Shown here one piece after another: positions 5,518-63,390 of a DNA stretch of 64,000 nt. Position 1 is the first letter of the stretch. Every line of letters starts with the position of its first letter. Source of the DNA: Elusimicrobiota bacterium (GTDB lineage Bacteria; Elusimicrobiota; Elusimicrobia; JACQPE01); assembly GCA_016205025.1 (NCBI GenBank), contig JACQJO010000029.1, forward strand, positions 97,759 through 161,758, written 5' to 3'. The notes beneath the pieces are model-generated. The model saw only the letters and a list, made by a program, of their open reading frames with translations, did not search any database and was not told where the DNA came from. Made by a program: the position numbers and the translations under genes.

Positions 5518-5940
5518 CTACTCTAACAAAAATACCGCGTCCCCTTTTTTAACGTGCTTGCCGTTGACGCCCAAAACTTTAACCACTTTCCCCGCTTTCG
5601 GCGCCCGGATTTCGTTCATCACCTTCATGGCCTCGATGATGCACAAAACATCTCCCGATTTGACCGCCAAACCCTCCTCTACGAAAGGGGCGGCCGACGG
5701 CGAGGACGAGCGGTAAAAAACACCGGATAACGGGGCGTTGACAGGGGTGCCTGAAACGGGGATAAGGGGAACCGGGGATGCGGCGATACTCTCCTGCCCG
5801 CTTCCCCTCTTACCCGCTTCACCCTCTTTCTTCAGGGCTATCTTTAGCTTTTCCTGCGGGCCCAGTTCAAATTCTAAGGCCGAAACGCCAGCCGCTTTCA
5901 TGCGTTGATACAAAAGCTCCAGCCGGGTCACAAGCGACAT
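5518..5940 (-). CDS. accB: Biotin carboxyl carrier protein of acetyl-CoA carboxylase
   Basis: 140 aa. Biotinyl-lysine motif 'EAMKVMNEI' in a C-terminal lipoyl-like domain, preceded by a Pro/Ala-rich linker. Confidence 0.85.
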   Translation of the reverse strand: MSLVTRLELLYQRMKAAGVSALEFELGPQEKLKIALKKEGEAGKRGSGQESIAASPVPLIPVSGTPVNAPLSGVFYRSSSPSAAPFVEEGLAVKSGDVLCIIEAMKVMNEIRAPKAGKVVKVLGVNGKHVKKGDAVFLLE

Positions 5941-5968
5941 GGGGCTAACTTACCAGATTATGAATTTT

Positions 5969-8239: not shown

Positions 8240-8334
8240 TTACTCCTTGTCCGATTATTCATTACGTTTATTCTAATTACAGGAAGAGTTCAGGTTGGTT
8301 ATTCAAGCCCAATCCCGTCAAAAAAGACCGGGAT

Positions 8335-8598
8335 TCAGTTTAAATCAAGATCCGAACGCAGCTTTTTTGACGCTGCACGGTCGTTTCTTTCCAAATAAGA
8401 AAGCAACGCGCGCCTTCTGCCCACCAGTTTTAAAAGTCCCCTGCGGGAAGAATGGTCGTATTTTTCGGATTTCAGATGCCCATTAATGCTGTTGATTCTA
8501 TTGGAAAGCATGGCGATCTGAACAACGGTGCCGCCCGTGTCCTTGGGGTTGGCCGCGTACCGTTTAACAATTTCTGACTTCTCTTCTTTTGTAATCAC
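8335..8598 (-). CDS. rpsO: 30S ribosomal protein S15
   Basis: 87 aa '[43 protein letters not shown]...'. It sits immediately upstream of pnp (classic rpsO-pnp arrangement). Confidence 0.95.
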
Positions 8599-8625
8599 GC
8601 TAGAATTATAACATGAAAAATTGAA

Positions 8626-9585
8626 CTAGCCACCTCGCGCTATTTTTACGTCTTTCATAATTTGAGCGCGCAAGTCCTCCAAAGAACCGAACTTTTTCTC
8701 ACCGCGAATCCGGCTTAAAAGTTCCAGCGTCAATGTCCGGCCGTAGAGGTTGCCCTTAAAATCAAGAACATGGGCCTCAACAACGGGCAAAAGGGGTGAG
8801 GGGTGAGGGGTGAGGGGTGAGGTAAAAAAACGATTTTCTTTCTGACCCCTGACCCCTGACCCCTGACCCCTGACTGTTGGCCTAAATCCGATATTAACCA
8901 CGGCCAGGCGGTCAAGCTCCGGTGCGCGAGCCCGGAACACTCCTAAGGGCAAAATTTTGGCGGGGTCAATGGACAAATTGGCGGTCGCGATCCCCAACAG
9001 CCTGCGGCCGATGCCTTCCCCCCGGACTACCCGGCCTCCAATGCGGTATGGCCGGCCCAAGAGGCGATTAGCCCGCGAAACATCGCCCTCGGCCAAAAGG
9101 CCCCGAATTCTGGTTGAAGAAACGGCCAATCCGCGCCCGGTTTTCAGCCGCACCATGCGCCAGCGAAGCCCAAGAGGCCGAAGAAACCGCTGGAAACTGG
9201 TGCTGTCGCACAAGCGGTCCTTGCCGAGGGCGAAATTCTCGCCGAAAACCAAGGTGTCTGCGCGCCACAAGCCGCAAGCGTAGCGCTTCAAAAATTCCCC
9301 GGCCGAAAGATTCAATAGAGAGCGCTTAATGCCCAGCACCGCTACCTTACGAATTCCAAACTCCTCGCGCAAAATCCTGATCCTCTCTTCAACCGTGGTT
9401 AGAAGCCGCACGATCCTGGTATTGCCATACAAAAAAACACGCGGCGAGTAGGGAAAAATGGCAACCATGGGTTCCAAATTCTTTTGCCGGGCCACGCGCA
9501 AAAGACCCTCCAGCGCCTTGCGATGCCCAAGGTGCAAACCATCAAAAGTGCCGATGGTAAGCGCTCTTTTCCTTGGCTTGGTCAT
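8626..9585 (-). CDS. ribF: Bifunctional riboflavin kinase / FMN adenylyltransferase
   Basis: 319 aa. N-terminal 'TIGTFDGLHLGHR' nucleotidyltransferase motif. C-terminal riboflavin-kinase motifs 'NIGFRPT...EAHVLDF..NLYG'. An in-frame repeat insertion lies at 8796..8876. Confidence 0.9.
   Translation of the reverse strand: MTKPRKRALTIGTFDGLHLGHRKALEGLLRVARQKNLEPMVAIFPYSPRVFLYGNTRIVRLLTTVEERIRILREEFGIRKVAVLGIKRSLLNLSAGEFLKRYACGLWRADTLVFGENFALGKDRLCDSTSFQRFLRPLGLRWRMVRLKTGRGLAVSSTRIRGLLAEGDVSRANRLLGRPYRIGGRVVRGEGIGRRLLGIATANLSIDPAKILPLGVFRARAPELDRLAVVNIGFRPTVRGQGSGVRGQKENRFFTSPLTPHPSPLLPVVEAHVLDFKGNLYGRTLTLELLSRIRGEKKFGSLEDLRAQIMKDVKIARGG
8796..8876. repeat. (GGGGTGA)n ... (TGACCCC)n hairpin repeat embedded in frame in ribF
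   Basis: 'ggggtgaggggtgaggggtgagg taaaaaaacgattttctttc tgacccctgacccctgacccctgacccctga'. It encodes 'GQGSGVRGQKENRFFTSPLTPHPSPLLP' inside the riboflavin-kinase domain. The ribF reading frame is kept. Confidence 0.75.
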
Positions 9586-10043
9586 TGGTGCGCCAATCCA
9601 AATTTTCTTTGCGCCGAGATGCGGCTGATCACGTCGCCAAACTCCGGATTCTTGTTAAGGAGATACTCAAAATCCTGGGAAAGAAGAGTGAATATCTTGG
9701 ATTCTTTGCCGGCAACGGCGCTGGCCAGACGAGGAGCTTTTTCCCAAAGCGCCATTTCGCCAAAAATTTGGCCCGGACCAAGGCAGGCGATCTCTCTGGA
9801 AAAAAATAGGAACGCTTTTTTTCGAATAACAATTTCTCCTTCATAAACTACGAATAGGGCGTCGCCACCGTCCCCTTCTTTGAATAGGGTGTGGCCGCGG
9901 CCGCATCGAAACAGCCCGAACGAGGGAATAACTTTTTCTAATTGCCCGGTCGTCATGCCGCCAAAAAAATGGATTTTCGCGAGGGTGGACAAAAGCCACT
10001 TCTGGTCGGAAGGTCCGATATTTAATTGTTCCAGCTTAGGCAT
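9582..10043 (-). CDS. Cyclic-nucleotide-binding domain protein (stand-alone cNMP-binding domain)
   Basis: 153 aa with the cNMP-binding signature 'FGEMALW...A.A'. The stop overlaps the ribF start. Confidence 0.65.
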   Translation of the reverse strand: MPKLEQLNIGPSDQKWLLSTLAKIHFFGGMTTGQLEKVIPSFGLFRCGRGHTLFKEGDGGDALFVVYEGEIVIRKKAFLFFSREIACLGPGQIFGEMALWEKAPRLASAVAGKESKIFTLLSQDFEYLLNKNPEFGDVISRISAQRKFGLAHQ

Positions 10044-10746
10044 AGTTTACGCTAGCCATTAAATTTTTGGATATATCCTGAAGACGTAAACCGTCGTCGC
10101 AATGATACGGTCCGACCGAAACCCGCGTTAATGAAGCGAGGTAAGCCCCGGTGCCCAAGGCCCGTCCAAAATCGCGCGCCAACGCCCGAATATAACAACC
10201 CTTGCCGACTTTGGCCTCGAATGAGAAAGAAGGTGAACAAAGTGAGAAAGGTGAACAAGGTTCGATTATTTTAAACTCATATACTTGCACCTTACGAGCC
10301 AACGGCTGAACCATTTGACCTCTACGGGCAAGCTCATAGAGGCGCTTGCCGCCCCAATGAAGCGCCGAATAAACCGGGGGTTCCTGCTCAATTTCACCTA
10401 GAAAACTTTCCGCTATTCTCTGGAAATCATCTTCTCGAACTTTTATCACCTTGTTCACCTTGCTCACCTTTCTCACCTTCCCCGTCAGGTCATCCGTATC
10501 TCTTTCCTCCCCCAGCGCGATCGTGCCGCGGTAAACCTTTGGCATATCCATTAGCTGCCCTGACAATTTTGTGGCTTTGCCCAAAAGAATCAACAACACG
10601 CCCTCGGCAAAAGGATCCAACGTGCCGGCATGGCCTATTTTCGATAAGGAGATAAGGTCCTCTCGCCTCATCGTTCTTTTAATGTGCCTGATCACGTCAT
10701 ACGACGTGATCCCGGCGGGCTTGTAAACGTTAAGGATGCCATCCAT
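10036..10746 (-). CDS. truB: tRNA pseudouridine(55) synthase
   Basis: 236 aa 'NVYKPAGITSYDVIRHIKR...GHAGTLDPFAEGVLLILLGKATK'. The catalytic Asp lies in 'GTLDP'. The gene contains a pair of internal inverted repeats (10221..10262 and 10446..10481). Confidence 0.9.
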   Translation of the reverse strand: MDGILNVYKPAGITSYDVIRHIKRTMRREDLISLSKIGHAGTLDPFAEGVLLILLGKATKLSGQLMDMPKVYRGTIALGEERDTDDLTGKVRKVSKVNKVIKVREDDFQRIAESFLGEIEQEPPVYSALHWGGKRLYELARRGQMVQPLARKVQVYEFKIIEPCSPFSLCSPSFSFEAKVGKGCYIRALARDFGRALGTGAYLASLTRVSVGPYHCDDGLRLQDISKNLMASVNYA

Positions 10747-16482: not shown

Positions 16483-18312
16483 TTATTGCGCCGACAGGCG
16501 CGCGCGATCCATCGGGTGGGGCAGAGTATTTTGAAGAATCATCTCTTCGGCAAGTTTTAAAATCTTATTTTGGGCCTGCAAAATCCGTTCAACGGGCGGC
16601 CGCCCCACGGTGACGAGGTACTCCTGCAAAATCTGGCTTGTTTTCTTGGGCAGGGAGTGAAAAATTTTATCCTTTAAGCCGGGGTCCGACAGGCCGTCTG
16701 AAATCGCTATGGCCAATTCATGAATCTGCACGCGCGAGAGAAGCATGTTTAACTCCTGCTCCGACCAATAGGTTATATCCCCAAAAAGCAAAACCTTGCC
16801 GCGCACGATCCGGTAAAGATTGGCGTCTTGGCTTTCGATCGTTTTAAGCATTTTCTCGCGCAACAGCAGATCAACGGCGTTTAACGTGTTGACAATTTCC
16901 TGCGCGCCGCCGACGACCCCGGCGATGCGGTGCTCCAGTTCCTCTTTCAGGCGCTCCATTAATTCCGTTTCCACCATTTGAGGCTCAGCCATCGCCTTGA
17001 TGACCTCTCCCAAGCGCTCGGATGGGAACTGCTCCAAGAACGCCTTTTTAGTGGCGACCGGAAGGCGGGCTACCACCAGGGCGATGTGGTTCGGATTTTC
17101 CTGCCCGATCAAGTGATAAAGGTCGGCCACGCGCGCCGGCGCGATCTTAATCTCCGCTTCGCCCGGCGCTTCGCTTTTTTGAGCGGCCATTTCGATTAAT
17201 TTTTCATCTCCGGCGCCGCCCGGCAACTCGTCTTCCCCCTCCTTGTCCTTGGCCATCCTTCCCTCAAGGTAAGCCCGCAGTTTATCCGGAAACTCAAATT
17301 TCACCTCGATGCTTTTTTGCCTGGCGGCTGAAAAAGCCACCACCCATTGCGCCAAAACTCCCACCAAGGAACGCCAAGTAATCAAAGCCAAAAACGTGGT
17401 GGCAACCAAGCCGATGATCAGAATAATCCCGATCGTGCCCCACTGAAGCACGGTGCCCAAAACCTTGGAATCCTTCAATAACTCCATGAAAGGATTGGGC
17501 ATGCTGAATCGCGTCACGACCAAACGGTCCCCCCGAGCCGCGTCCAGCGTTAAAAATGACCCGATCAAGGTCTGCACCTTCGCCTCGGCGTCCGCCGGCA
17601 AAGAATAATCCAGGGCGACCTTGACGAAAACGGATTTAACCTCCAGGCCCACCGCGTAAAGAAAATTGGGGTCCGAGAAAGGGTAACGCCCATCCGCCGC
17701 CTTCCTGGAACCCGGCGGCGCGCCGCCGGTTGGAACCGAAACCCCGGTCCCCACGGCCGAAAACCCGGGCAGGATAAAGGTGTCGGTTCCGGAGGCCTGG
17801 GGATCGCCGCTGTCCGCTATGCCCGGAAAAAGCCATTTATAACTGGAAGGATTTTCAGCTCCGGCATCGTCTGCCGGCGCGTCCTTGGCTGTCCGGCCTA
17901 ACTGGCCGGACAAATAAGCCGAAAGGCTGTTTTGCAATTCTTCCTTGAGTTTTAACGAAAACCCGACGTCCACATGCACGAAAACCTCGGCGTTTCCGGT
18001 GCCGAACGTTTTATCCAGGTGCTCCTGAATTTTATTCTTAAGATCACGCGACAGGTAGCTGGAAGCCTGAACAATCGCGCCTCCGGGCTCCAGGGGAAAG
18101 GCGAATGGAGGAAAGGCACTAAGGCACAAAGGCACTAAGGCACTAAGAATAACAGCTCTTCTTAGCTTAGCGCCTAAGTGCCTTTTTGCCCCAGTGCCCA
18201 AGTGCCTAAGTGCCTCTATGCCTATCTTGCCCTTTATCACTTTTTCCCCTTTTAGATTAATCCCAAAACCCCCCCCGCGCAACCCCCAACACCAAAAAGT
18301 AGGGACAGACAC
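16483..18312 (-). CDS. Membrane protein with a C-terminal FliG-like (FliG middle/C-terminal, MgtE-N-like) domain, possibly a FliF/FliG-like fusion
   Basis: 609 aa. The C-terminal ~250 aa align by eye with FliG. One TM helix 'IGIILIIGLVATTFLALITW' lies mid-protein. The N-terminal aa ~24-67 are encoded by hairpin repeat 18110..18240, and the start codon is uncertain. Confidence 0.45.
   Translation of the reverse strand: MSVPTFWCWGLRGGGFGINLKGEKVIKGKIGIEALRHLGTGAKRHLGAKLRRAVILSALVPLCLSAFPPFAFPLEPGGAIVQASSYLSRDLKNKIQEHLDKTFGTGNAEVFVHVDVGFSLKLKEELQNSLSAYLSGQLGRTAKDAPADDAGAENPSSYKWLFPGIADSGDPQASGTDTFILPGFSAVGTGVSVPTGGAPPGSRKAADGRYPFSDPNFLYAVGLEVKSVFVKVALDYSLPADAEAKVQTLIGSFLTLDAARGDRLVVTRFSMPNPFMELLKDSKVLGTVLQWGTIGIILIIGLVATTFLALITWRSLVGVLAQWVVAFSAARQKSIEVKFEFPDKLRAYLEGRMAKDKEGEDELPGGAGDEKLIEMAAQKSEAPGEAEIKIAPARVADLYHLIGQENPNHIALVVARLPVATKKAFLEQFPSERLGEVIKAMAEPQMVETELMERLKEELEHRIAGVVGGAQEIVNTLNAVDLLLREKMLKTIESQDANLYRIVRGKVLLFGDITYWSEQELNMLLSRVQIHELAIAISDGLSDPGLKDKIFHSLPKKTSQILQEYLVTVGRPPVERILQAQNKILKLAEEMILQNTLPHPMDRARLSAQ
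18110..18240. repeat. GGCACTAAG/CTTAGTGCC octamer hairpin element (copy 3 of 3)
   Basis: 'ggaaaggcactaaggcacaaaggcactaaggcactaagaataacagctcttcttagcttagcgcctaagtgcctttttgccccagtgcccaagtgcctaagtgcctctatgcct'. In the FliG-like ORF frame it encodes 'RRAVILSALVPLCLSAFPPFAFP' (signal-peptide-like). Confidence 0.75.
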
Positions 18313-18352
18313 TGCTTTTTTTAAAAAAAGCAGTGTCTGTCCCTACTTTTTG
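18294..18352. repeat. REP-like perfect palindrome, family 1 (core TAGGGACAGACAC), intergenic copy
   Basis: 'aaaaagtagggacagacactgctttttttaaaaaaagcagtgtctgtccctactttttgg'. It shares the GGGACAGACAC...GTGTCTGTCCC arms with the copies flanking the transposase at 18988..19040 and 19716..19769. Confidence 0.85.
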
Positions 18353-18390: not shown

Positions 18391-18717
18391 ATGTGGTACA
18401 GTATGTACATGAATAAAAAAATGGGTGATTGGCCCAGCGAACTAAACGTTTCTGAAGCGCGGCGCCTTCTGCCCAGCTTAATCCATTTTCTGGAACGCCA
18501 TCCTGATCGGATATTTAAAATTAAACAGCGCCAGCGCATGGTCGCGCAGCTGCAGGCGCCGCCGCGGCTGGCTAAAAGCGGACTGGCGGCCGAACGGTTG
18601 CTTCGTTTGGCTAAAAAACGCCGCTCAAAAAAAATTTCAACCACCATAAAGCCATTAAATGGCTCGAGCGATCAAAAGAAAGCAAAAGTTCTTTCCACGC
18701 GACCTGGGAAATTTTAA
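18391..18717 (+). CDS. Phd/YefM-like antitoxin
   Basis: 'LNVSEARRLLPSLIHFLERHPDRIFKIKQRQRMVAQL' fits the Phd/YefM N-terminal pattern (sEAR.nL...ve.h...I.r....vAvL). The likely start is M11 (~18421). Upstream lies palindromic operator-like DNA 'gtacatgtggtacagtatgtacatg'. Confidence 0.5.
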   Translation: MWYSMYMNKKMGDWPSELNVSEARRLLPSLIHFLERHPDRIFKIKQRQRMVAQLQAPPRLAKSGLAAERLLRLAKKRRSKKISTTIKPLNGSSDQKKAKVLSTRPGKF

Positions 18718-18989
18718 GTGAAACGGTTACGCTTCTAAGAATTAAATCCGGCTATGTGCCGGCGGCCCGTTTTGCCCAAGACATTATTCCAGCGCTGCAT
18801 ATCGCCGCCATCGATGAATCGCTGCGCCGGGAAGCCTTAAACATATTTCTGCGATTCGCCCGGGATAAGAAGCTTTCTTTTTGCGACTGTCTTTCCTACG
18901 CGGCCCTGACAACCATTTTGCGCGGCCTGCCGGCGGCCACCTTTGACCGGCATTTCAAGATGCTCGGCCTACCCCTCCTTGACGGATAA
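18634..18989 (+). pseudogene. PIN-domain (VapC-like) toxin remnant lacking its own start codon and first catalytic Asp
   Basis: The frame is open from the TAA at ~18631. 'AAIDESL...LSFCDCLSYAALTTILRGLPAATFDRHF' matches the PIN C-terminal acidic motifs. The position aligned to the first catalytic Asp reads Ser ('WEILSETV'). There is no ATG/GTG/TTG until the GTG at 18756. An A8 homopolymer lies at the frame junction with the antitoxin. Confidence 0.45.
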
Positions 18990-19769
18990 ATAGGGACAGA
19001 CACTATTTATTAGAAAATAAATAGTGTCTGTCCCTATTTATTAAAACGGGACGTCCCCTGATCTTGGGGGTTAAGTCCTTCTGCAGAACCTGCTCCATGC
19101 GGCTAATAAACTCTTCTTTTCCCGTGGGGCGGCCACGATGAGTGGCGTGGCGAATGCCGCTTAAAAATCGCGCATCTTCTTCGTCAGTCAAATAATCTGA
19201 CCAGTTTGGTATCTCCTCCAATAAAGGACAATAGGAAAGAATGGGGTTGGGTATTTTGGAAATATGAGCCTTGGCGCTCGACCAAAAATATTCTTCCGCT
19301 TTTATAACAAGTCCGGCACGCACCGGATTTCTTTCAACATAACGAACTGCCGCATAGGTATACTGCTCATCTAAAACACTAGAAAAAAATCGGCCTTGCC
19401 AGAGATGTCCGCTCCGTTTGGCCTTAGCGTTAAAGTACAAGGCATAGGTAGCGTGAAGAGAAGCCATGGTTTTTGCTATCGAATTTTGATTTTCAGGCAC
19501 AACAATAAAATGTACGTGATTGGTCATTAAACAGTAAGCCCAAATCTTCAGACCAAACTTCTGCGAGCATTCTTTTAACCCACCAAGATAAAATCTTCTA
19601 TCCTGATCATCAAGAAAAACATTTTCTTTATTGTTTCCCCTCTGCGTAACATGGTGAGGCAAGTCAGGCACGACAACTCTCGCATCTCTGGGCATGGAAA
19701 AATAGTACAAAATAATAAATAGGGACAGACACTATTTATTAGAAAATAAATAGTGTCTGTCCCTATTTA
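18988..19769 (-). mobile_element. IS200/IS605-family (RAYT-like) tyrosine transposase unit flanked by family-1 perfect palindromes
   Basis: Palindromes 'aaatagggacagacactatttatt agaa aataaatagtgtctgtccctattt' at 18988..19040 and the same at 19716..19769 bracket the tnpA ORF. Confidence 0.8.
19003..19710 (-). CDS. tnpA: IS200-like / REP-associated tyrosine transposase (HuH Y1)
   Basis: 235 aa. HuH motif 'TNHVHFIV' and a C-terminal catalytic-Tyr region 'YVERNPVRAGLV'. 'MPRDARVVVPDLPHHVTQRGN' is the probable true start (M6). Confidence 0.8.
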   Translation of the reverse strand: MYYFSMPRDARVVVPDLPHHVTQRGNNKENVFLDDQDRRFYLGGLKECSQKFGLKIWAYCLMTNHVHFIVVPENQNSIAKTMASLHATYALYFNAKAKRSGHLWQGRFFSSVLDEQYTYAAVRYVERNPVRAGLVIKAEEYFWSSAKAHISKIPNPILSYCPLLEEIPNWSDYLTDEEDARFLSGIRHATHRGRPTGKEEFISRMEQVLQKDLTPKIRGRPVLINRDRHYLFSNK

Positions 19770-21724
19770 TTGGAAGCGGTGCAGGAATTCGGAAAGGGCT
19801 TTGTTGTCGGGGTTGATCTCAAGGGATTTTTTCCACATTTCGAAGGCCTTGTCGCGAATGCCGAGCGCGAAGTAGGAAGAACCCAGCCGCTCGTAGGCCA
19901 AGGCGTTGTTGGGGTCCAGCTTAATGGCGTCTTCGCAGGCTTTGGTGGCCATTTCGAATCGGCCCTGTCTAAAGAAGCGATCCGCCTCCTGAAGCTTGGC
20001 GATGATGTTGACGCGCGGCGGCAACAGCGGCTTGGTTTTTTCCTCCGCGCGGCCGGATTCCTCTACCATGGTTTCGAAGATGCGCCGGGTGATCTCGTCT
20101 CCCGGATCCTCCGCCATGGCCTGGCGCATCAATAAAATGGCGCCGTCTAAATTGGCCTCGATATAGTCGGACAACCCGCGCAGCATATAGGTATATTTTC
20201 TCTTCAACTCGGAAGGCGCGTCTTCGGACGGCTTTTTCATTTCCTCGGTCGTCAACCGCAGCCAGCCGATCACCTTCTCGGCGCGCGAACGGCGCACCCC
20301 GACCACCTGGTCCGTGGGATTGGTGGCCAATGACTTATCCATCAACCGCGCGGCCTCAAGGAACCGCCCGGCCCGGTAAGCTTCCTGCGAATGGTCCAGG
20401 TAACCCTGCGACAAGCTCTTTCTCTCGCGCACCTTACTGCCGCCCAGCCACACCCCGACCGAAAACCGGCTGGAGTTGCCCAGTTCATGCATCATCATGG
20501 CGTAATCAAGCTGGACGTTGCCGTATCTCATGCCCAGGCCTCCGGAAGCGGCGTTGGTCCCGCCCATGCCCAAGCGCAGAGCGGCCGGCCCCAACCCGTA
20601 CTCCAAGCCCACCCTGGTCACCGCGCCAACCTGCTCAAACTGGCTCGAAACCTTAAGCGCTCCTTCGAATAGTCCGTAGCTGGCGCCCAAAACAACATTT
20701 AAGGGCAGTTCGTCTTCGGTGCCCACTCCGGTAAACAGCACGTCGCGCAGAACCAACCCTATTTCCCCATGTTTAAACGCCTGATAATCCATGGCCATAT
20801 CAAGAGAGGCCAATGATGACGACGCGCCCGGCAGGCTTCGGGTCAAATACTTTCCGGAGGCGCCAAAAGAAAAGGAGGAGCCGAACCGGTTGCCGTACGA
20901 TAAACCCAAGCCTTGGCTCATAAAACTGTAATCGCCCACCAAATTGTTATTGTCATCCCTTTGCTCAACAGCCCCGATGCCAAGGCGCACCACCGAAAGC
21001 CCCACGGTACCGGCCGACAGCATGGGATAAGCCCACCCCGCGTAATCGTAAGTGGCGCCCTCAAACAAACCCGCGTGCAGGAAGTTAAAATTCATTCTCT
21101 CAAGATAAGACAACCGCGCCGGGTTCCAGTAACCGGCCGTGGCGTCTTCGGCCATGACGATGGAGGCGTTGCCGAGACCCAGGGAACGAGCGCCGGCTCC
21201 AAAAGTCCAAATATCGCCAGCTCCGCCCCCTAACTCTTTACCAAAAGAGTTAGGGGGAAAGGCGACAGAGGCCAAAAAGGCCACGGAGGCCAAAGACGCT
21301 ATAATAAAATTGTGGCAAAGACGTTCAAGGATCTTATTGTTTGGAAAGAGGCTAAATTGTTGGTCCACAGCATTTACCGACAAACATCCGGTTTTCCTAA
21401 AGAAGAAACTTATGGACTTATCTCCCAAATGCGCAGAGCAGCGCTTTCCGTTCCCAGCAATATTGCCGAAGGCTGGGGTTCGCATTCTACGGACAAACAA
21501 TTTCTTCAATATCTCAACAACGCCAGCGGCAGTCTTGCGGAACTCGAATCGCATATCGCCATTGCTGCCGATGAAGGTTTTCTTGCTAGCGCGCACAAAA
21601 ACCAACTTGAAGACCAAGTGAAACGCATAAGCTATCTCATAAACCGTTTTAGAGATCGCCTTAATTAAGATTACCATCGCCTCTATGGCCTCTTTGGCGT
21701 CTTTCGCGTCTTTCGCCTTTCTCA

Positions 21725-21725
<1 letters not shown>
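19767..21725 (-). CDS. Outer-membrane beta-barrel protein of the FadL/PorV-like type with C-terminal TPR repeats (5' end uncertain)
   Basis: The N-terminal mature region 'GAGARSLGLGNASIVMAEDATAGYWNPARLSYL' matches the FadL/PorV 'NPA' motif family. A Gly/Tyr/Ser-rich alternating-strand region of ~300 aa follows. The C-terminal ~200 aa carry TPR repeats ('AYERLGSSYFALGIRDKAFEMWKKSLEINPDN'). The first ~140 codons of the ORF overlap the opposite-strand four-helix-bundle gene and a repeat arm. The hydrophobic 'ASLASVAFLASVAF' stretch is encoded by repeat 21258..21300. Confidence 0.6.
21226..21300. repeat. Left inverted-repeat arm plus a hairpin flanking four-helix-bundle cassette 1
   Basis: Hairpin 'ccccctaactctttaccaaaagagttaggggg' (21226..21257). 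It is followed by 'aaaggcgacagaggccaaaaaggccacggaggccaaagacgc', which is inverted relative to 21683..21722 ('ggcctctttggcgtctttcgcgtctttcgcctttctc'). Confidence 0.7.
21312..21668 (+). CDS. Four-helix-bundle protein (TIGR02436 / '23S rRNA intervening-sequence protein' family; Avd-like fold)
   Basis: 118 aa. 'FKDLIVWKEAKLLVHSIYRQTSGFPKEETYGLISQMRRAALSVPSNIAEGWGSHSTDKQFLQYLNNASGSLAELESHIAIAADEGF' matches the family hallmarks (DL.VWqkA...iy.lt..FPkeE.ygL.sQ.rRAa.Si.sNIAEG.gr....e...fl.iA.GSl.El.t.l). Confidence 0.85.
   Translation: MAKTFKDLIVWKEAKLLVHSIYRQTSGFPKEETYGLISQMRRAALSVPSNIAEGWGSHSTDKQFLQYLNNASGSLAELESHIAIAADEGFLASAHKNQLEDQVKRISYLINRFRDRLN
21683..21722. repeat. Right inverted-repeat arm of four-helix-bundle cassette 1 (tandem GCGTCTTTC units)
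   Basis: 'ggcctctttggcgtctttcgcgtctttcgcctttctc'. It lies between the 4HB stop and the giant-gene stop. Confidence 0.7.
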
Positions 21726-59344
<37,619 letters not shown>

Positions 59345-59352
59345 CTGTTCAC

Positions 59353-59401
59353 CCCAAAAACGGAGGCGCCTCGAATCACTTCGGGGATTCGAGGCGCCTC
59401 A
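59353..59401 (-). terminator. Candidate intrinsic terminator / attenuator hairpin immediately upstream of the giant gene (minus strand)
   Basis: A 15-bp GC-rich stem 'gaggcgcctcgaatc' / 'gattcgaggcgcctc' with an 8-nt loop. On the minus strand it is followed by 'CGTTTTTGGGG'. Confidence 0.4.
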
Positions 59402-59679
59402 TAACCCATCGTTAAAACATCAGTTTGATATCCGGGTGGCGCCCTCGAAGCAAGGAGTATCGCCACCCATAGAGAAAAAGAGAACAAAGCGGACAAGGTG
59501 AATAAAGCGAATAAAGACGAGGGGGCGTTACTACAATTTCCAGTACAATCCAACGGCCATACTCCAAGACCCCCATATTTGTCACCCCGCCCCAAGGCGG
59601 GGTCCAAGCCATTTTGATGATCCCCAGCCCAAAAGTTAAGGCTAGTTTCCTCCTGGCGACCCGATTTCGTTAGGACGTT

Positions 59680-59737
59680 AAAAATGGTACCAGGTACCAA
59701 ATGGCCAAAAATATCCATTTGGTACCTGGTACCATTT
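59680..59737. repeat. Family-2 palindrome, copy b (intergenic)
   Basis: 'aaaaatggtaccaggtaccaaatggccaaaaatatccatttggtacctggtaccatttt'. Confidence 0.85.
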
Positions 59738-60013
59738 TGGATTTGGATTATTTTGCCTTCTCTTGCCGCTGGTTCTCCCTGCAGAAACACAAAAAGAACC
59801 ACAAAAGGCAATAAATAAAAAAGCCCCGGCGCCAAAAGCACAATTCCAGCGCCCAGGGACCCCAATGAAAGAAACAGGGAAATAGGGTCTCCCACCATTA
59901 AATATGTACCTCACCCCCCGCCCTCGGTCAAGTAGGGTCAAAACATACTTTTGGGGACAAGTGAATAAGGTGAATCAGGTGACAAAGGAACCAGAAAAAA
60001 TGGTACCAGGCAG

Positions 60014-60072
60014 AAAAAATGGTACCAGGTACCAAATGGGCACTAATGCCCATTTGGTACCTGGTACCATTT
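60014..60072. repeat. Family-2 palindrome, copy c, at the 5' end of transposase 2, preceded by a truncated extra arm at 59995..60010
   Basis: 'aaaaaatggtaccaggtaccaaatgggcactaatgcccatttggtacctggtaccatttgtg'. Confidence 0.85.
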
Positions 60073-60789
60073 GTGCATTTGTGCTTAAATCCAATAGTTA
60101 TGCCAAGACACCCAAGAATAGAAATGCCTGGAGGTTTTTACCACGTTCTGAACCGTGGCAACAACAAGCAAGCATTGTTTCGTAATGCGGGTGACTACGT
60201 ATTCTTCTTAAACCTATTGGAAACTGCTTCTAAAAAATGGCCCTTTAAGGTGCACGCTTATTGCCTAATGCCCAATCATTACCATCTCTTTATGGAAACC
60301 ACAGAAGGACACTTATCGCGCCCGCTGCATCTTGTTAACAGAGCCTACGCCGCTTATTTTGCTAGAAAATACGAATTTACTGGACACGTATTCCAAGGAA
60401 GATTTAAATCGCTCATGGTTGAAAAAGAAGGCTATCTTTTAACTCTTTCTAGATACATCCACCTTAATCCCATCAAAGCCAAGCTGGCACAAAAACTGGA
60501 AGATTATTCCTACTCCAGCTATGCCTGCTTCATGGGACTTAGATCAAAGCCGAACTGGCTGGATATCGAAACCACGCTAAGCTACTTCGGATCAACAAGC
60601 ATACTCCAGCAAGAACAGTACAAGCTTTTCGTGTTAAGCGAGATGTTCGAATTGCAAAACGAACCTTTTTATCAAGCCGCCGATGATGTGCTGGAAGGAA
60701 AATCCAAAGCGCTCATGAGATTAAAAAAGGTACTCCACTTAAAAACAGCGCCTAGCACCGCAACGGAAAATAAGGTACTAATTAATTAA
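60019..60789 (+). CDS. tnpA: IS200-like / REP-associated tyrosine transposase (second copy; probable true start ATG 60100)
   Basis: 'MPRHPRIEMPGGFYHVLNRGN...CLMPNHYHLFMET...GHVFQGRFKS...SRYIHLNPIKAKL'. It carries the HuH motif and a catalytic Tyr region. It has the same architecture as 19003..19710 but diverged sequence. The N-terminal 27 codons of the maximal ORF are translated palindrome. Confidence 0.8.
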   Translation: MVPGTKWALMPIWYLVPFVHLCLNPIVMPRHPRIEMPGGFYHVLNRGNNKQALFRNAGDYVFFLNLLETASKKWPFKVHAYCLMPNHYHLFMETTEGHLSRPLHLVNRAYAAYFARKYEFTGHVFQGRFKSLMVEKEGYLLTLSRYIHLNPIKAKLAQKLEDYSYSSYACFMGLRSKPNWLDIETTLSYFGSTSILQQEQYKLFVLSEMFELQNEPFYQAADDVLEGKSKALMRLKKVLHLKTAPSTATENKVLIN

Positions 60790-61688
60790 TGTTCTGCAGT
60801 TCATGCGGAGAGAGGAATCCTCATGGTTCGCGCTTTTGCAACAACTGTGGTTCGACTTTGCTCACCACGGGTGGCGCGAAATTAGGCGGTGGAACAATCG
60901 GCACAGGCGCAACAGGCGCTAAAAGCAACCCCCCTTCATGGGCTAACACCCTGGGAATCACCGCGCTGTTTGCGGCGGGATTGATCGGCATTTATCTTAA
61001 TCCCCTGCTTGAGGTGACGACGGTGGCTTATATCGCGGTCGCGGCTTCGACCGTTTGGGTATTTATGGATGCGCCGCGCTGGAATCTCTCCCGATGGCCA
61101 TGGACCGCGGGAACGCTGGCGCTCTGGGCTTTCATATTTCCCGTTTATCTCTGGAAAACGCGGCGCTGGACCGGCTTGGTTCCGGGCCTGGCCGGAAGCT
61201 TAATCATTGTGGGAATGCAGGCCTTTCCCCATTTTTACTCCGAAAAAAAACATTTCCGGCGCGGCGTTCTTTTCGCCGGACAACAGCGCTTCACGCAGGC
61301 CGAAAATGAATTCAAAATGGCCATCAAGAAAAATCCGGCTTTGGGCGAGGCGCATCTGAATTTGGGCATTCTCTATATGAGCCAAGGGATGCTTGAAGCC
61401 TCGGAGCGGGAATTAACCGCGGCCCAACAGCTTTTGCAAACCAAAAAACCGAAATACCTGGGCGACTTAAACCAAAACGAAGCACTCTCCCTTTGCTCGT
61501 CACACCTGGCCGCGGTCTACGCCATGCGCACCAGCGAGGAAATCCAGGTCTTAAACCGCCAGCAAGCCAAAATCTATTTCGCCAAAGCCAAAGAATACGC
61601 CAGCCGCGCCCTGGAGCTCGACGGCGGCAATTTAAGATCGCAGGAATTGACAAGACGATTAAAGCAACTGGAAACGTTTTTGGAATAA
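60789..61688 (+). CDS. Zinc-ribbon / TPR-repeat membrane protein
   Basis: 299 aa. N-terminal 'CSSCGERNPHGSRFCNNCG' zinc ribbon, a Gly-rich linker, ~4 TM helices, and a C-terminal TPR ('GEAHLNLGILYMSQGMLEASERELTAAQQLL'). Confidence 0.6.
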   Translation: MFCSSCGERNPHGSRFCNNCGSTLLTTGGAKLGGGTIGTGATGAKSNPPSWANTLGITALFAAGLIGIYLNPLLEVTTVAYIAVAASTVWVFMDAPRWNLSRWPWTAGTLALWAFIFPVYLWKTRRWTGLVPGLAGSLIIVGMQAFPHFYSEKKHFRRGVLFAGQQRFTQAENEFKMAIKKNPALGEAHLNLGILYMSQGMLEASERELTAAQQLLQTKKPKYLGDLNQNEALSLCSSHLAAVYAMRTSEEIQVLNRQQAKIYFAKAKEYASRALELDGGNLRSQELTRRLKQLETFLE

Positions 61689-61692
61689 AAGA

Positions 61693-61738
61693 AAGTAGGT
61701 AGTAAAAAAAGTAGGTAGTAGATAGTAGGTAGTAGGTA
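61693..61738. repeat. (GTAGGTAGTAG)n left inverted-repeat arm of four-helix-bundle cassette 2
   Basis: 'gtaggtagtaaaaaaagtaggtagtagatagtaggtagtaggtagg'. It is the inverse of 62152..62182 'cctacctactacctactacctactacctact'. Confidence 0.75.
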
Positions 61739-61767
61739 GGGGAGGGGAAAGGGTAGGGGAAACAAAA

Positions 61768-62144
61768 ATGTTGACAACGGAACTGAAAACTGCAAAGGCC
61801 CAATGTTTTGAAGATTTGATTGTATGGCAGAAGGCTCATCAAGCCGTCCTTTATATATACAAACTGACAAAAAATTTTCCTTCCGATGAACGCTACAACT
61901 GGTTTCGCAAATGCGTAGGGCCGCCGTATCCGTAGCCGCCAATATTGCCGAAGGTTTCAAAAAGAGATCAACAAAAGATAAAAGTAATTTCTACAATATC
62001 GCCCAAGGTTCTCTTGAGGAGTTGCGTTATTATTTGTTGCTTTCAAGAGATTTGGGGTATATTGGTGACAACGAACTTCTGTCTAACCAAATGGACGAGG
62101 TCGGGCGGATGCTTAACGGTTTAATTGCTTCCCTTAAATCCTAG
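61768..62144 (+). pseudogene. Four-helix-bundle protein gene (TIGR02436 family), frameshifted
   Basis: The N-terminus 'MLTTELKTAKAQCFEDLIVWQKAHQAVLYIYKLTKNFPSDERYN' is in one frame. The C-terminus 'LVSQMRRAAVSVAANIAEGFKKRSTKDKSNFYNIAQGSLEELRYYLLLSRDLGYIGD...' is in the +1 frame. A single missing base lies near 61893 ('tacaac|tggtt' where 'tacaacctggtt' is expected). This is a pseudogene or a sequencing error. Confidence 0.6.
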
Positions 62145-63390
62145 TCGCTCTTCCCTACCTACTACCTACTACCTACTACCTACTATCCTTCTTCTTGCCA
62201 GTTGCTCTCATCTCCCCTCGCGCAAGGCGTCTGATTCCTGGACTGTCCGCGATTTAGTCCAAACCTCCGAAGAAGTTCGTCCCCTCGCTTGCGCGTTCGA
62301 TCAGACGGGCCAACTTCGTGTTATCTACGCCGCCAGGGAAAAGATGTTTCACGTGGCTGCGCCTGAAGGGTTTAGCGCGGGGGGGTTGCCCGAAACGCTT
62401 CCTTTTTCGGCTCCCCCGTCCAGAACGCCGGCCAGTCTGATTTTTGACGCCCAAAACCGCGCTCATTTTTTTTATCAGGGAAAAAACGGCTTGCATTACG
62501 CTATCCGTCAAAACGAAGGGTGGATTTTGGCTCTCCTGACCGACCATTTAAGAAACGGGGCTTCCTGGCAAACTTTTTTTGACAGCCAAAATGTTCCCAC
62601 CATTATTTTCGAGCACAGGGAAAACTTTCTGGCTGTGACAAAACCGACAACGGCCGGCTGGCGGGAACTGCGCTTGCCCCTGTCGGACAAAAACGAACCG
62701 GGGCGCATCGTCTGTTCAACCGCCAAGCTGGATGCCGAGCACAAGCGGCTCCACTTCGCGGCGATTCGAGAAAAAAACAAAAAGGCCCATCTTTGGTACG
62801 CGGCGGCCAATATCACCAATTACCCGCAAAGAACCGTCTCGGCCCCGACAGGCATCCAAGAGATGCTCTCAACGGACGGGGTTTGGGAAGAAACTTTTTC
62901 TCTTTTTGAATTTAAGGTCAATTCAATCGGCGGCTGTACTGTTAATCTCGGCAATGATTTACCCGGCAGTATTCACTTCACCTGGGTGGACTGGGCCAAA
63001 AAACAATGGACCGGAAAGGAACATCTTCGATTCGGCCGCTACGATAAGGAATGGAAAATCAAAACCTTAGAAAAAAATATCGCCTCTGGAAACCGGGGGC
63101 TTGTTTTCGCGCGGGATTCAAACGGCACGGATCAATTCGATCTTGTTGTTTTTAATCCCACGACGCAGGTTTTGCGTTACCTTGCTTTAGACGAAGAAGG
63201 GGCGATGCGGGAAAAAGGAACGATTCCTTTCTTGTCCGGCGCGCCGCCCTGCCTGGCTTTGAAAAAGGGAACCCCGCAAGTGGGGCGAGGGAAAAAAGAT
63301 GTGGGTAACAGTAAGCCTGGTGGAGGGGCGTGGATCGTGGTTAGTCAGAAGGAAGGACTGAAAGCTTTCGTTGAGAACGCACGGCCTTAG
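62125..63390 (+). CDS. Hypothetical lipoprotein
   Basis: 421 aa with a TTG start. Signal peptide with lipobox 'ILLLAS|C'. No recognisable catalytic motifs. Confidence 0.5.
   Translation: MLPLNPSRSSLPTTYYLLPTILLLASCSHLPSRKASDSWTVRDLVQTSEEVRPLACAFDQTGQLRVIYAAREKMFHVAAPEGFSAGGLPETLPFSAPPSRTPASLIFDAQNRAHFFYQGKNGLHYAIRQNEGWILALLTDHLRNGASWQTFFDSQNVPTIIFEHRENFLAVTKPTTAGWRELRLPLSDKNEPGRIVCSTAKLDAEHKRLHFAAIREKNKKAHLWYAAANITNYPQRTVSAPTGIQEMLSTDGVWEETFSLFEFKVNSIGGCTVNLGNDLPGSIHFTWVDWAKKQWTGKEHLRFGRYDKEWKIKTLEKNIASGNRGLVFARDSNGTDQFDLVVFNPTTQVLRYLALDEEGAMREKGTIPFLSGAPPCLALKKGTPQVGRGKKDVGNSKPGGGAWIVVSQKEGLKAFVENARP
62152..62182. repeat. (CTACCTACTAC)n right inverted-repeat arm of four-helix-bundle cassette 2, lying within the N-terminal coding region of the downstream lipoprotein gene
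   Basis: 'cctacctactacctactacctactacctact'. It encodes 'LPTTYYLLPT' of the predicted lipoprotein signal peptide. Confidence 0.75.

Follow-up and report, generated by a model that had tools for sequence, protein, structure and literature searches.

In Porphyromonas gingivalis, the C-terminal domains (CTDs) of PorU and PorZ are retained rather than cleaved and hold the two proteins on PorV and PorQ. In Flavobacterium, cognate adhesin–shuttle pairs are encoded in tandem, and type A CTDs share one general PorV that is not linked genetically to its cargo (PMC12618676). The secretion system known as type IX (T9SS) is treated by reviews as confined to Bacteroidota, and no study linking it to Elusimicrobia or Elusimicrobiota was found in the literature searched. 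Here, we describe a 64,000-nt window (the whole stretch of DNA analysed, positions 97,759 to 161,758 of contig JACQJO010000029.1) from a metagenome-assembled genome of Elusimicrobia, in which a gene for a giant adhesin-like protein with a T9SS type A-like CTD stands in tandem with a gene for a PorV/PorQ-like barrel fused to TPR repeats, as part of a conserved module whose motor parts appear to derive from a flagellum. Such a module is not described in the literature searched. Whether giant protein and barrel form a cargo–anchor pair coupled to a flagellar-type motor module is, in our estimate, evenly poised.

On Salmonella pathogenicity island 4 (SPI4), the giant adhesin SiiE needs SiiAB, a MotAB-like, peptidoglycan-binding proton channel, by a coupling mechanism that is not known (10.1101/641415). 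A strong tendency towards huge proteins has been remarked on in Elusimicrobia (PMC11573180), and the words T9SS, Kelch, lectin and MotA are all absent from the description of the giant genes of Omnitrophota (10.1101/2023.11.21.568195). Magnetotactic and most free-living Elusimicrobiota are reported to lack structural flagellar proteins and to carry numerous motAB, flbD and fliG homologues, the role of which was called "unclear" and "enigmatic" in a preprint that does not mention PorV-like barrels or CTD proteins (10.1101/2022.07.08.499144). Our searches of this genome for T9SS and motor genes cover the 64 kb of the window, out of a contig of 176,692 bp; for comparison, 115 loci were fetched, three of which are E. 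coli references, leaving 112 related loci (designated L001 and so on).

The giant gene and its C-terminal domain

The frame 21725..59344 on the minus strand is a single open reading frame (ORF) of 12,539 codons with one stop, and the probability of meeting no other stop over this length is ~1e-217 at 55% GC. Its GC content at third codon positions (GC3) is 0.62, the same as in the neighbouring infB, nusA, pnp and ftsK, which argues that the ORF is a native gene; the flanks consist of housekeeping genes (rimP-nusA-infB-truB-ribF-pnp, ftsK, lolA and rodZ). A preliminary description, made by a model from the letters alone, had held the 37.6-kb stop-free frame to be no product of chance, and these figures agree with it. 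Codons 1-35 overlap a REP-like (repetitive extragenic palindromic) palindrome at 59271-59331, so that a AAAATGGTACCAGGTACCAAATGG copy is contained in this stretch of the long ORF, immediately ahead of the probable true start. That start is likely Met36 at 59239, which has a G-rich Shine-Dalgarno-like stretch in front and begins MNRRLTTLL..LYA followed by AS, a plausible signal peptide as the preliminary description had proposed, read here by eye.

Pfam recognised nine Laminin_G_3 domains, three Lectin_C domains and a dense Kelch signal in the giant protein (Table 1), in agreement with the repeated LamG/ConA-like modules and the three C-type lectin-like domains that had been read from the sequence beforehand. 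Counting with an iterated blade profile gave 78 Kelch blades, where more than 60 had been estimated, in runs of 54, 12 and 12 that correspond to 13 six-bladed propellers. Self-comparison resolved tandem propeller units of ~430 aa and three super-repeats (aa ~200-2300, ~5640-7790 and ~8130-10250) with 50-78% protein identity, confirming the super-repeat structure proposed earlier; LamG pairs equivalent to that of the first super-repeat lie at 40376-41824 and 31835-33322, and the LamG stretches number nine in total. Two motifs said to recur threefold were found at aa 570/6036/8537 and at aa 1396/6866/9350, and a motif quoted for the outer-membrane protein occurs once. By contrast, the proposed Ig-like arrays were not recovered by hidden Markov models (HMMs), as aa 10250-12440 (~2,200 aa) had no Pfam match apart from a weak fn3 signal. 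The best explanation of these features would be a Sec-exported, multivalent, carbohydrate-binding surface adhesin that is assembled from modules of the LamG, C-type lectin and Kelch-propeller kinds.

The internal DNA repeats of the ORF are 65-92% identical, and because they are diverged in this way the ORF is not an artefact of repeat collapse. The longest exact repeat, of 131 nt, lies within a 162-nt (54-aa) in-frame tandem at ~48890-49710 (gene nt ~9636-10456), the units of which are ~80% identical and the copy number of which could be off in a short-read assembly; repeat collapse could change a local copy number, but cannot have produced the giant frame. In the closest relative, L001 (1-9923), the giant gene is split into ORFs of 8,442 and 331 aa that overlap by ~80 nt, a frameshift just ahead of the CTD that is either real or a sequencing error.

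The last ~100 aa of the giant protein form a CTD that stops at the protein's last residue. It matched FlgD_ig (PF13860), its better Pfam match, at 32-34 bits (curated cutoff 27) and TIGR04183, the "T9SS type A sorting domain", at 27.8-28.2 bits (cutoff 23), but remained under the cutoffs of PF18962 (24.4 vs 27 bits) and of the type-B family CHU_C (19-23 vs 27 bits). The ~90-aa domain of T9SS or FlgD-Ig type named in the preliminary description is thus recovered by TIGR04183 and FlgD_ig, but not by PF18962. No type-B CTD model was among the NCBIfam hits of the window or of the orthologous CTDs, all 13 of which matched TIGR04183 (best E 7.6e-11) as well as the CTD regions of PorU and PorZ. The strongest local matches of the CTD were the C-terminal domains of PorU and PorZ, and its best solved relative by profile was the PorU CTD (6za2, E 1.8e-6), with FlgD Ig domains next. 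An alignment across 13 loci contained the invariant motifs YPNPxDxR and WDG..G..G.Y and the terminal K-[ILV]-G-[VI]-[IV]-H.

A profile search with the CTD returned 327 relatives, many of them fragments and some of them proteins of 130-150 aa on very long contigs. CTD-only mini-proteins of ~130-145 aa, which seem to consist of hardly more than the CTD, lie directly upstream of PorV-TPR genes, with no giant gene there, in L010 (1343-1774) and L013 (9488-9874); similar small CTD proteins are P0113, P0140 and P0145, and the contigs that encode such proteins reach 563 kb in length.

A PorV-like barrel, a FliF-FliG fusion and their synteny

The giant gene and the PorV-TPR gene are 431 nt apart, with a small gene of the opposite strand between them. 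The preliminary description had placed an outer-membrane protein directly downstream of the giant gene on the same strand, of which order and strand stand, whereas the ORF it used, 19767..21725, is over-extended because its first ~144 codons are antisense to a PF05635 gene, which encodes a four-helix bundle and lies in between. The corrected protein scored 84.1-85.5 bits against NF033709 (E 1e-23 to 5e-24; cutoff 90 bits), and all 19 full-length PorV-TPR relatives matched this model (best E 1.6e-37). Against the equivalog models the window barrel stayed far under the cutoffs, with 34 of 250 bits for PorV, 58 of 220 for PorQ and 74 of 325 for PorV2. NCBIfam gave PorV/PorQ models only for the barrel family, with no PorP/SprF model at E <= 0.01, and no FadL family in its output for the 19 barrel members.

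An AlphaFold 2 (AF2) model built from the family alignment (pLDDT 85) comprised 14 strands and the TPR part. The top two Foldseek hits were the PorV chains 8gl6_F and 6h3i_F (E 1e-9 and 1.5e-8; TM-score 0.60), followed by FadL, TodX and OmpG; both chains are PorV in Flavobacterium johnsoniae SprA-PorV translocon structures, and 8gl6 contains a bound substrate CTD. A prediction of the neighbour as a PorV/PorQ-family 14-strand barrel fused to TPR repeats is therefore supported by family profile (NF033709, E 5e-24) and fold alike, and the earlier, broader assignment to a FadL/PorV type fused to TPR repeats holds, with the PorV/PorQ family as the match and PorV as the best structural counterpart. 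Since the barrel has an even number of strands, the TPR domain would be periplasmic.

Among the ~20 full-length barrel+TPR homologues, those with a source name come from Elusimicrobia or Elusimicrobiota. When GTDB species representatives were scanned with the family alignment, the barrel+TPR architecture was essentially restricted to Elusimicrobiota, plus Marinamargulisbacteria, and barrel-only PorV/PorQ relatives were spread over many phyla. A CTD-bearing ORF has its end <=520 nt upstream of the barrel gene in 19 of the 40 full-length PorV-TPR loci, in proteins that range from 133 aa to >12,000 aa; in these 19 loci the CTD ends <=8 residues from the C-terminus, with no residue after it in 15. 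Over all phyla, 32 of 80 GTDB loci with PorV-like genes have an upstream CTD ORF (Elusimicrobiota 11/20, Zixibacteria 3/3, Bacteroidota 0/5, Poribacteria 0/16), and further pairs were met in Ignavibacteria, Gemmatimonadota, Caldithrix, KSB1 and WOR-3.

A role of the CTD as ligand of the barrel is best supported, if indirectly, by the nature of the conserved upstream element, which is the CTD whatever protein precedes it, and we infer that the CTD docks on the barrel. The best reading of the two genes would be a cognate adhesin–anchor pair that follows the logic of SprB and SprF with type A and PorV parts. Of the dedicated cargo-plus-shuttle pair proposed in the preliminary description, the pairing recurs in these loci, but its standing as T9SS cargo is unproven, as no homologue of SprA/Sov, PorK/L/M/N, PorU or PorP/SprF was found in the window or in the 112 related loci. 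Two ORFs of ~2,150-2,200 aa upstream of barrel-only PorV-like genes (L049 and L079) were considered as SprA and rejected, one being a CTD surface protein and the other Kelch/GlxA-like. Outside Elusimicrobiota the parts return in different gene orders: in Marinamargulisbacteria, L023 (9869-19503) has a PorV-TPR gene followed by a 2,562-aa CTD protein, and L046 (8288-11119) has MotA and MotB directly upstream of a PorV-like barrel.

The four-helix-bundle gene between the giant and barrel genes is bracketed by 51-nt inverted repeats (21257-21307 and 21671-21721). A different four-helix-bundle gene occupies the same spot in L002 (10001-10406), on the strand of the PorV-TPR gene and read through into it (one 647-aa annotation), and L001 has no such gene between its giant and barrel genes. 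An invertible segment acting as a switch is not supported, as the L002 gene lies at the same spot in the other orientation than that of the window without DNA similarity. A diversity-generating retroelement acting on the lectin domains, an idea raised by the PF05635/Avd-like family, was likewise rejected, since no reverse transcriptase motif in real ORFs and no template/variable repeat pair was found.

At 1.5 kb past the PorV-TPR gene, with an IS200-like insertion between, lies a FliG-like gene whose product is a full-length orthologue (46% identical) of the copy in the L002 cluster. Its FliG_M and FliG_C domains score above the Pfam cutoffs, and against the FliG equivalog model TIGR00207 it reached 60.9 bits, short of the cutoff of 226.7. 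FliG_N is replaced by a FliF-like periplasmic domain and a transmembrane helix, so that the family reads, in order, signal peptide, ~210-aa periplasmic domain, one transmembrane helix, acidic linker, FliG_M, GVVGG hinge, LLFEDL and FliG_C, with E[DN]PxxIALVVA in FliG_M (compare EHPQ) and LLFEDL in the place of MFxFEDL. A profile of the family matched FliG M+C in the PDB with E 2e-28 and, in its N-terminal half, FliF 240-465 (6scn) with E 1.6e-4. The AF2 model matched FliG M+C with E 2e-9 and the FliF RBM3/collar with a probability of at least 0.97, and its FliG_C superposed at 1.1-1.2 Å on 1qc7 and on the stator-bound 8ucs_H. As judged from these matches, the protein is a natural fusion of the C-terminal part of FliF with FliG M+C, without FliG_N. 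The family comprises 136 clusters (50% identity, E <= 1e-30), mostly of 480-850 aa and matching end to end.

The preliminary description had passed over the strongest signal of the locus, the conserved link of the barrel to this fusion and MotAB, seen from both anchors. In three relatives, the order is giant CTD protein, PorV-TPR, FliF_C/FliG_M/FliG_C protein, MotA, MotB and a ~420-aa uncharacterised protein. Across Elusimicrobiota, an upstream open-ended ORF (at least 3,170-3,332 aa) with a homologous CTD is present in 12 loci, PorV-TPR with the FliG-like gene behind it in 15-16, mostly together with MotA and MotB, and a ~780-aa coiled-coil protein, c3, in 11; the cluster ends with MotA, MotB and a ~250-aa lipoprotein, c7, before the unrelated housekeeping genes mnmA and ddl. 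In the reverse direction, the FliG-like family was searched in metagenome contigs, and PorV-TPR, MotA, MotB and the coiled-coil protein were found beside the FliG-like gene in every contig long enough to judge.

The linked MotA of the relatives is similar to MotP/MotA/PomA from end to end (E 1e-71 to 1e-65, under the equivalog cutoffs), and the linked MotB carries MotB_plug and OmpA-like domains. In the numbering of the E. coli reference, MotB D32 and MotA P173 and P222 are invariant in the clusters, and the torque helix of the FliG-like proteins is acidic at D288/289 in 11 of 11 and basic at R281 in 8 of 11. The FliM-binding EHPQ/R160 signature is degraded, with R160 lost. By the definition given in PMC12505986, the linked MotAB has the marks of the flagellar (FIT) class, and these residues show it, by homology, as a flagellar-type stator with an intact proton path. 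The cluster proteins c3, Unk and c10 have no signal peptide or transmembrane helix, are charged and coiled-coil-like, and are probably cytoplasmic, and c7 has a lipobox. None of c3, c7, c10 and Unk could be assigned to known T9SS or secretion components, since no family or PDB sequence match was found, and the window ORF 62125..63390 was rejected as the Unk coiled-coil protein.

Several variants of the module were seen. L002 has a second pair of PorV-TPR and FliG-TPR right after the first cluster (18646-21944), and some FliG-like proteins end in TPR repeats. Several paralogous modules per genome occur in L012, in L030 and in L017 together with L049, which lie on the same 3.1-Mb contig; L030, from Endomicrobiales, has two PorV-like genes and up to three ORFs scored as FliG-like, of which one at least is a response regulator that was misassigned. 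In the clade of L004 (11748-14240), the FliF-FliG fusion carries an N-terminal HisKA/HATPase histidine-kinase module, and in the related metagenome clade L090-L110 a separate ~313-aa protein like that N-terminal part lies between PorV-TPR and MotA; these histidine-kinase parts hint at sensory control of the module.

Possible functions and rival explanations

Starting from the domain content, the family and fold homologies, the synteny statistics and the conserved proton-path residues, we propose that the CTD is a handle which would dock the giant adhesin non-covalently on its cognate PorV/PorQ-family barrel, rather than mainly a Bacteroidota-style T9SS signal. Docking may resemble that of PorU and PorZ on PorV and PorQ, or that of the RemA CTD on PorV in 8gl6, with the TPR domain of the barrel reaching into the periplasm. 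The FliF-FliG fusion would form a ring that serves as a minimal MS-ring and torque ring, in an inner-membrane module with MotA/MotB, the coiled-coil proteins and the lipoprotein, and proton flow through MotAB would act on the FliG domains of this ring. More speculatively, the work might be passed through the periplasm to the TPR barrel and its bound CTD protein, where it could either energise export and assembly, the role of PorLM/GldLM taken over by another motor, or set the surface adhesin in motion or under tension in a gliding-like manner. We put forward, as a tentative proposal that is rather improbable in its full extent, an undescribed envelope-spanning machine in which a MotAB-driven FliF-FliG ring is coupled through the TPR barrel to CTD-held surface proteins. 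It is similarly doubtful, though conceivable, that such a machine would be a flagellum-derived adhesin motor or secretion energiser, convergent with and mosaic of the GldLM/SprB gliding and T9SS machinery.

Several observations weigh against a pair coupled to a motor. All functional links rest on synteny and homology. For about half of the PorV-TPR genes, the place directly upstream is not taken by a CTD gene, no MotAB is present within the window, and the closest relative, L001, has the giant and barrel pair with no FliG-like gene or MotAB downstream, which indicates that the pair can exist without an adjacent motor. The window barrel scores just below the curated PorV_fam cutoff, and the inserted element's inverted-repeat arm supplies the coding sequence for its N-terminus, which has no basic n-region, whereas the L001 barrel has a normal signal peptide; the barrel copy of this genome could be impaired. 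The weightiest point concerns the crossing of the outer membrane: the window and the related loci yielded no translocon gene, whether SprA/Sov-like or other, and a protein of 12.5k aa is too large to go through a 14-strand barrel. As candidates for the periplasmic connector, c3 and Unk look cytoplasmic. In addition, the AF2 model of the FliG-like protein has only moderate confidence (pLDDT 62), and the equivalents of MotA R90 and E98 are not strictly conserved, the R90 site being mostly R or K and the E98 site varying.

An unlikely alternative is that the giant protein is ordinary T9SS cargo, that a complete T9SS is encoded elsewhere in the genome with PorV-TPR as a specialised shuttle, and that the FliG-like protein and MotAB serve another function. 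The TIGR04183 score above cutoff and PorV as the best fold match of the barrel would both be expected of such cargo, PorV/PorQ barrels in many non-Bacteroidota phyla indicate that T9SS-like parts are spread more widely than the literature states, and the part of this genome inspected is 64 kb. However, a T9SS core gene is missing from the window and from the ~112 related loci alike, the literature searched provided no link to Elusimicrobia or Elusimicrobiota, with reviews confining T9SS to Bacteroidota, and the single, unlinked PorV that type A CTDs share in Flavobacterium (PMC12618676) is unlike the tandem pairs here. Nor would this explanation account for the linkage to the FliF-FliG fusion and MotAB, which is nearly universal.

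That linkage is what a further alternative has to discount, according to which the fusion and MotAB are a relic of a lost flagellum, a regulatory device or part of another motor such as that of type IV pili, and the pair is a static anchor. The missing MotAB next to the pair in L001 and in the window, the half of PorV-TPR genes without an adjacent CTD gene and the degraded FliM-binding EHPQ/R160 signature would fit it, and twitching or Gld links for MotAB have been the subject of speculation (10.1101/2022.07.08.499144). We consider it improbable all the same, given that the linkage holds from both anchors across relatives that are 23-34% identical, that the MotB Asp, the MotA prolines, the plug and the torque-helix charges would not have survived in a relic, that the FliG-like family has expanded to at least 136 clusters at 50% identity, and that a single genome can hold several modules (L002; L017 and L049 on one contig; L030).

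Still less probable, to a degree that makes it a poor candidate, is an uptake channel of the FadL type that would take in hydrophobic substrates and carry a TPR scaffold, and whose adjacency to the giant gene would be an operonic coincidence unrelated to the giant's tail. FadL, TodX and OmpG do follow PorV among the fold matches, some barrel homologues have faint UPF0164 hits, and FadL-like outer-membrane proteins of Treponema carry periplasmic alpha-helical, TPR-bearing extensions (PMC8407342), but all 19 members were placed in PorV/PorQ by profile (best E 1.6e-37) with no FadL family, the top structural hit is PorV, and the recurrent upstream CTD ORF, including CTD-only proteins of 133-145 aa, makes little sense if the CTD is not the ligand. 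Finally, an artefact of assembly or annotation, through repeats that were collapsed or chimeric or through sequencing errors that fused several genes, is extremely improbable, since the metagenomic origin of the assembly, the 131-nt exact repeat within the 162-nt tandem, the four strong hairpins inside the ORF and the broken L001 homologue (8442+331 aa) are outweighed by repeats that are just 65-92% identical in DNA and 50-78% in protein, a no-stop probability of ~1e-217, a GC3 equal to that of native genes, a coherent domain order from signal peptide to CTD, and homologous ORFs of 8,442+331 aa (L001), 7,061 aa and 5,468 aa, thus of 5.5k to >8.7k aa, in independent assemblies of relatives, so that collapsed repeats, which the preliminary description had named as the danger to its reading, are not upheld as the source of the ORF.

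Returning to the cargo–anchor pair with its motor module, if this reading is true, T9SS-type tails and PorV-like barrels would form cognate tandem cargo–anchor pairs well beyond Bacteroidota and extend the reach of this surface-display system. The synteny already gives a context to the orphan motAB and fliG genes of Elusimicrobiota (10.1101/2022.07.08.499144), and these "enigmatic" genes of non-flagellated members would gain testable partners in a FliF-FliG ring, an outer-membrane barrel and giant adhesins, which would bear on the re-use of rotary proton motors and the evolution of the flagellar motor. The 12.5k-aa multivalent lectin and propeller protein would also offer a handle on the attachment or movement of uncultured, often ultra-small or host-associated bacteria.

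Other features of the window and comparison with known systems

Table 1. Features of the window, with coordinates in window numbering
Feature	Coordinates	Strand	Description and evidence
Giant adhesin gene	21725..59239	-	Probable start Met36 at 59239, 12,504 aa; frame open to 59344
Sec signal peptide (probable)	59147..59239	-	MNRRLTTLLSNGAYLLSTIYYLLSTPLYA followed by AS; read by eye from the sequence
LamG/ConA-like domains (Laminin_G_3, PF13385), super-repeat 1	55697..57211	-	Pfam E 1e-13 to 5e-46
C-type lectin domain 1	55166..55477	-	aa 1290-1393; Pfam Lectin_C E 1.3e-18
Kelch array 1	43760..54979	-	aa 1456-5195; 54 blades, nine six-bladed propellers, ~165-aa linkers; Pfam, self-comparison, blade profile
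C-type lectin domain 2	38756..39079	-	aa 6756-6863; Pfam Lectin_C E 8e-11
Kelch array 2	36296..38536	-	aa 6937-7683; 12 blades, two propellers; Pfam and blade profile
C-type lectin domain 3	31304..31615	-	aa 9244-9347; Pfam Lectin_C E 1.4e-14
Kelch array 3	28889..31132	-	aa 9405-10152; 12 blades, two propellers; Pfam and blade profile
Unannotated region with ~655-aa repeats	23696..28591	-	aa 10252-11883; no Pfam family
CTD, T9SS type A / FlgD-Ig type	21728..22027	-	Terminal KLGVIH-COOH; FlgD_ig and TIGR04183 above cutoff; conserved in 13 loci
Four-helix-bundle gene (23S rRNA intervening sequence / Avd-like, PF05635)	21312..21668	+	E 1e-33; between giant and barrel genes
PorV/PorQ-family barrel-TPR gene	19767..21293	-	508 aa, TTG start at 21293; NCBI call P0001, 100% identical
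Barrel part	20445-21206	-	aa 67-283, 14 strands, AF2
TPR part, predicted periplasmic	19773-20435	-	aa 287-507, all-helical, AF2
IS200/RAYT-like Y1 transposase	19003..19710	-	Between PorV-TPR and FliG-like gene
FliF(C-terminal RBM3)-transmembrane-FliG(M+C) fusion, HY401_04440	16483..18135	-	550 aa; Pfam FliG_M and FliG_C; PDB profile; fold search
Parts of the fusion	periplasmic ~17443-18078; transmembrane ~17371-17442; FliG_MC ~16537-17121	-	
In-frame REP-like hairpins in the giant ORF	28625-28669, 29933-29977, 37328-37372, 48554-48598	.	Each encodes SGKIGTDTNC.T.GVCPYFSCYGP
Other ATAGGGACAGACAC hairpins	18299-18346; 18990-19037, 19719-19766		Upstream of FliG-like gene; flanking Y1 transposase
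Second REP family, AAAATGGTACCAGGTACCAAATGG palindromes	59271-59331, 59680-59738, 60015-60075		Accompanies RAYT-like gene
RAYT-like tyrosine transposase	60019..60789	+	

The window also contains two families of REP-like palindromes with transposases of the REP-associated tyrosine transposase (RAYT) type. Seven hairpins with the core ATAGGGACAGACAC and its complement were found, against 0.01 expected by chance; those in the giant ORF have stems of 27-29 bp and a dG of -47 to -50 kcal/mol, and the IS200/RAYT-like transposase is flanked by 58-nt palindromes (18986-19043 and 19713-19770). The ATAGGGACAGACAC copies resemble one another far more closely than does the coding DNA around them, and none of the related loci has one, so that the hairpins inside the ORF have the look of in-frame insertions specific to this lineage, which recall the palindromic elements of Rickettsia. 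Between AAAATGGTACCAGGTACCAAATGG copies lies a 185-aa ORF (59341..59898) with no family match. Short tandem arrays of the AGTAGGTAG type at 61685-61744 and 62150-62190 are arranged as an inverted pair with 35 nt of 94% complementarity and a spacing of ~400 nt, and the downstream arm overlaps the start of the 421-aa ORF 62125..63390 on the plus strand, also with no family match. A composite transposon carrying the pair was rejected, as the flanking Y1 and RAYT-like transposases are just 35% identical and belong to different REP families.

In size, the giant protein is very large at 12.5k aa, although the earlier claim that it is among the largest bacterial proteins has to be set against larger bacterial ORFs on record in Omnitrophota (10.1101/2023.11.21.568195). 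The giant genes of Omnitrophota are likewise very large adhesion-domain ORFs of uncultured bacteria in a conserved, secretion-related neighbourhood, but they differ in their flanks, which resemble type II secretion systems and type IV pili, in their SecA-like and peptidase domains and in their transmembrane segments. The FadL-like outer-membrane proteins of Treponema pallidum share a 14-strand FadL-fold barrel with a presumptively periplasmic helical TPR domain in their models (PMC8407342), and some homologues here have faint UPF0164 hits; unlike the barrel described here, they are modelled as importers and have no reported adjacent CTD or motor genes. SiiE and SiiAB of Salmonella likewise combine a giant repetitive adhesin and a MotAB-like proton channel in one locus, whereas SiiE is a substrate of a type I secretion system without a CTD or a PorV-like barrel, and SiiAB resembles MotAB only distantly and lacks a FliG-like partner.

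The inner-membrane part resembles the flagellar rotor and stator in its FliF RBM3/collar-like domain, its transmembrane helix, its FliG_M and FliG_C with an MFxF-like LLFEDL hinge, and the plug-bearing MotA/MotB of the relatives with the proton-binding Asp. It differs in that FliF and FliG are fused, FliG_N is absent and the FliM-binding signature is degraded, and in clusters that lack genes for FliM/N, export apparatus, rod, hook and filament. The outer-membrane part is closest to PorU-PorV and PorZ-PorQ of P. gingivalis, with a CTD that best matches those of PorU (6za2) and PorZ and a barrel in the PorV/PorQ family; here, however, the partners are adhesins or CTD-only mini-proteins rather than a sortase and a lipopolysaccharide-delivery protein, the barrel carries TPR repeats, and the genes stand in tandem.

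The SprB/SprF/GldLM system of F. johnsoniae, to which the preliminary description had likened the locus, offers the same gene order, with a very large repetitive surface adhesin and, directly downstream, the gene of a cognate FadL-fold outer-membrane partner, an arrangement that recurs in the relatives here; some CTD/partner pairs are "orphan" (PMC12618676), and a putative link to a proton-driven inner-membrane motor may be common to both. The analogy does not extend to the parts, as the CTD here is of type A/FlgD-Ig (TIGR04183) where the SprB type is type B/CHU_C, and the barrel belongs to the PorV/PorQ family with TPR repeats instead of PorP/SprF. SprA, GldK and GldN were not found in the window or in the related loci, and the linked motor consists of a flagellar-type MotAB and a FliF-FliG fusion in place of GldL and GldM, in Elusimicrobiota instead of Bacteroidota.

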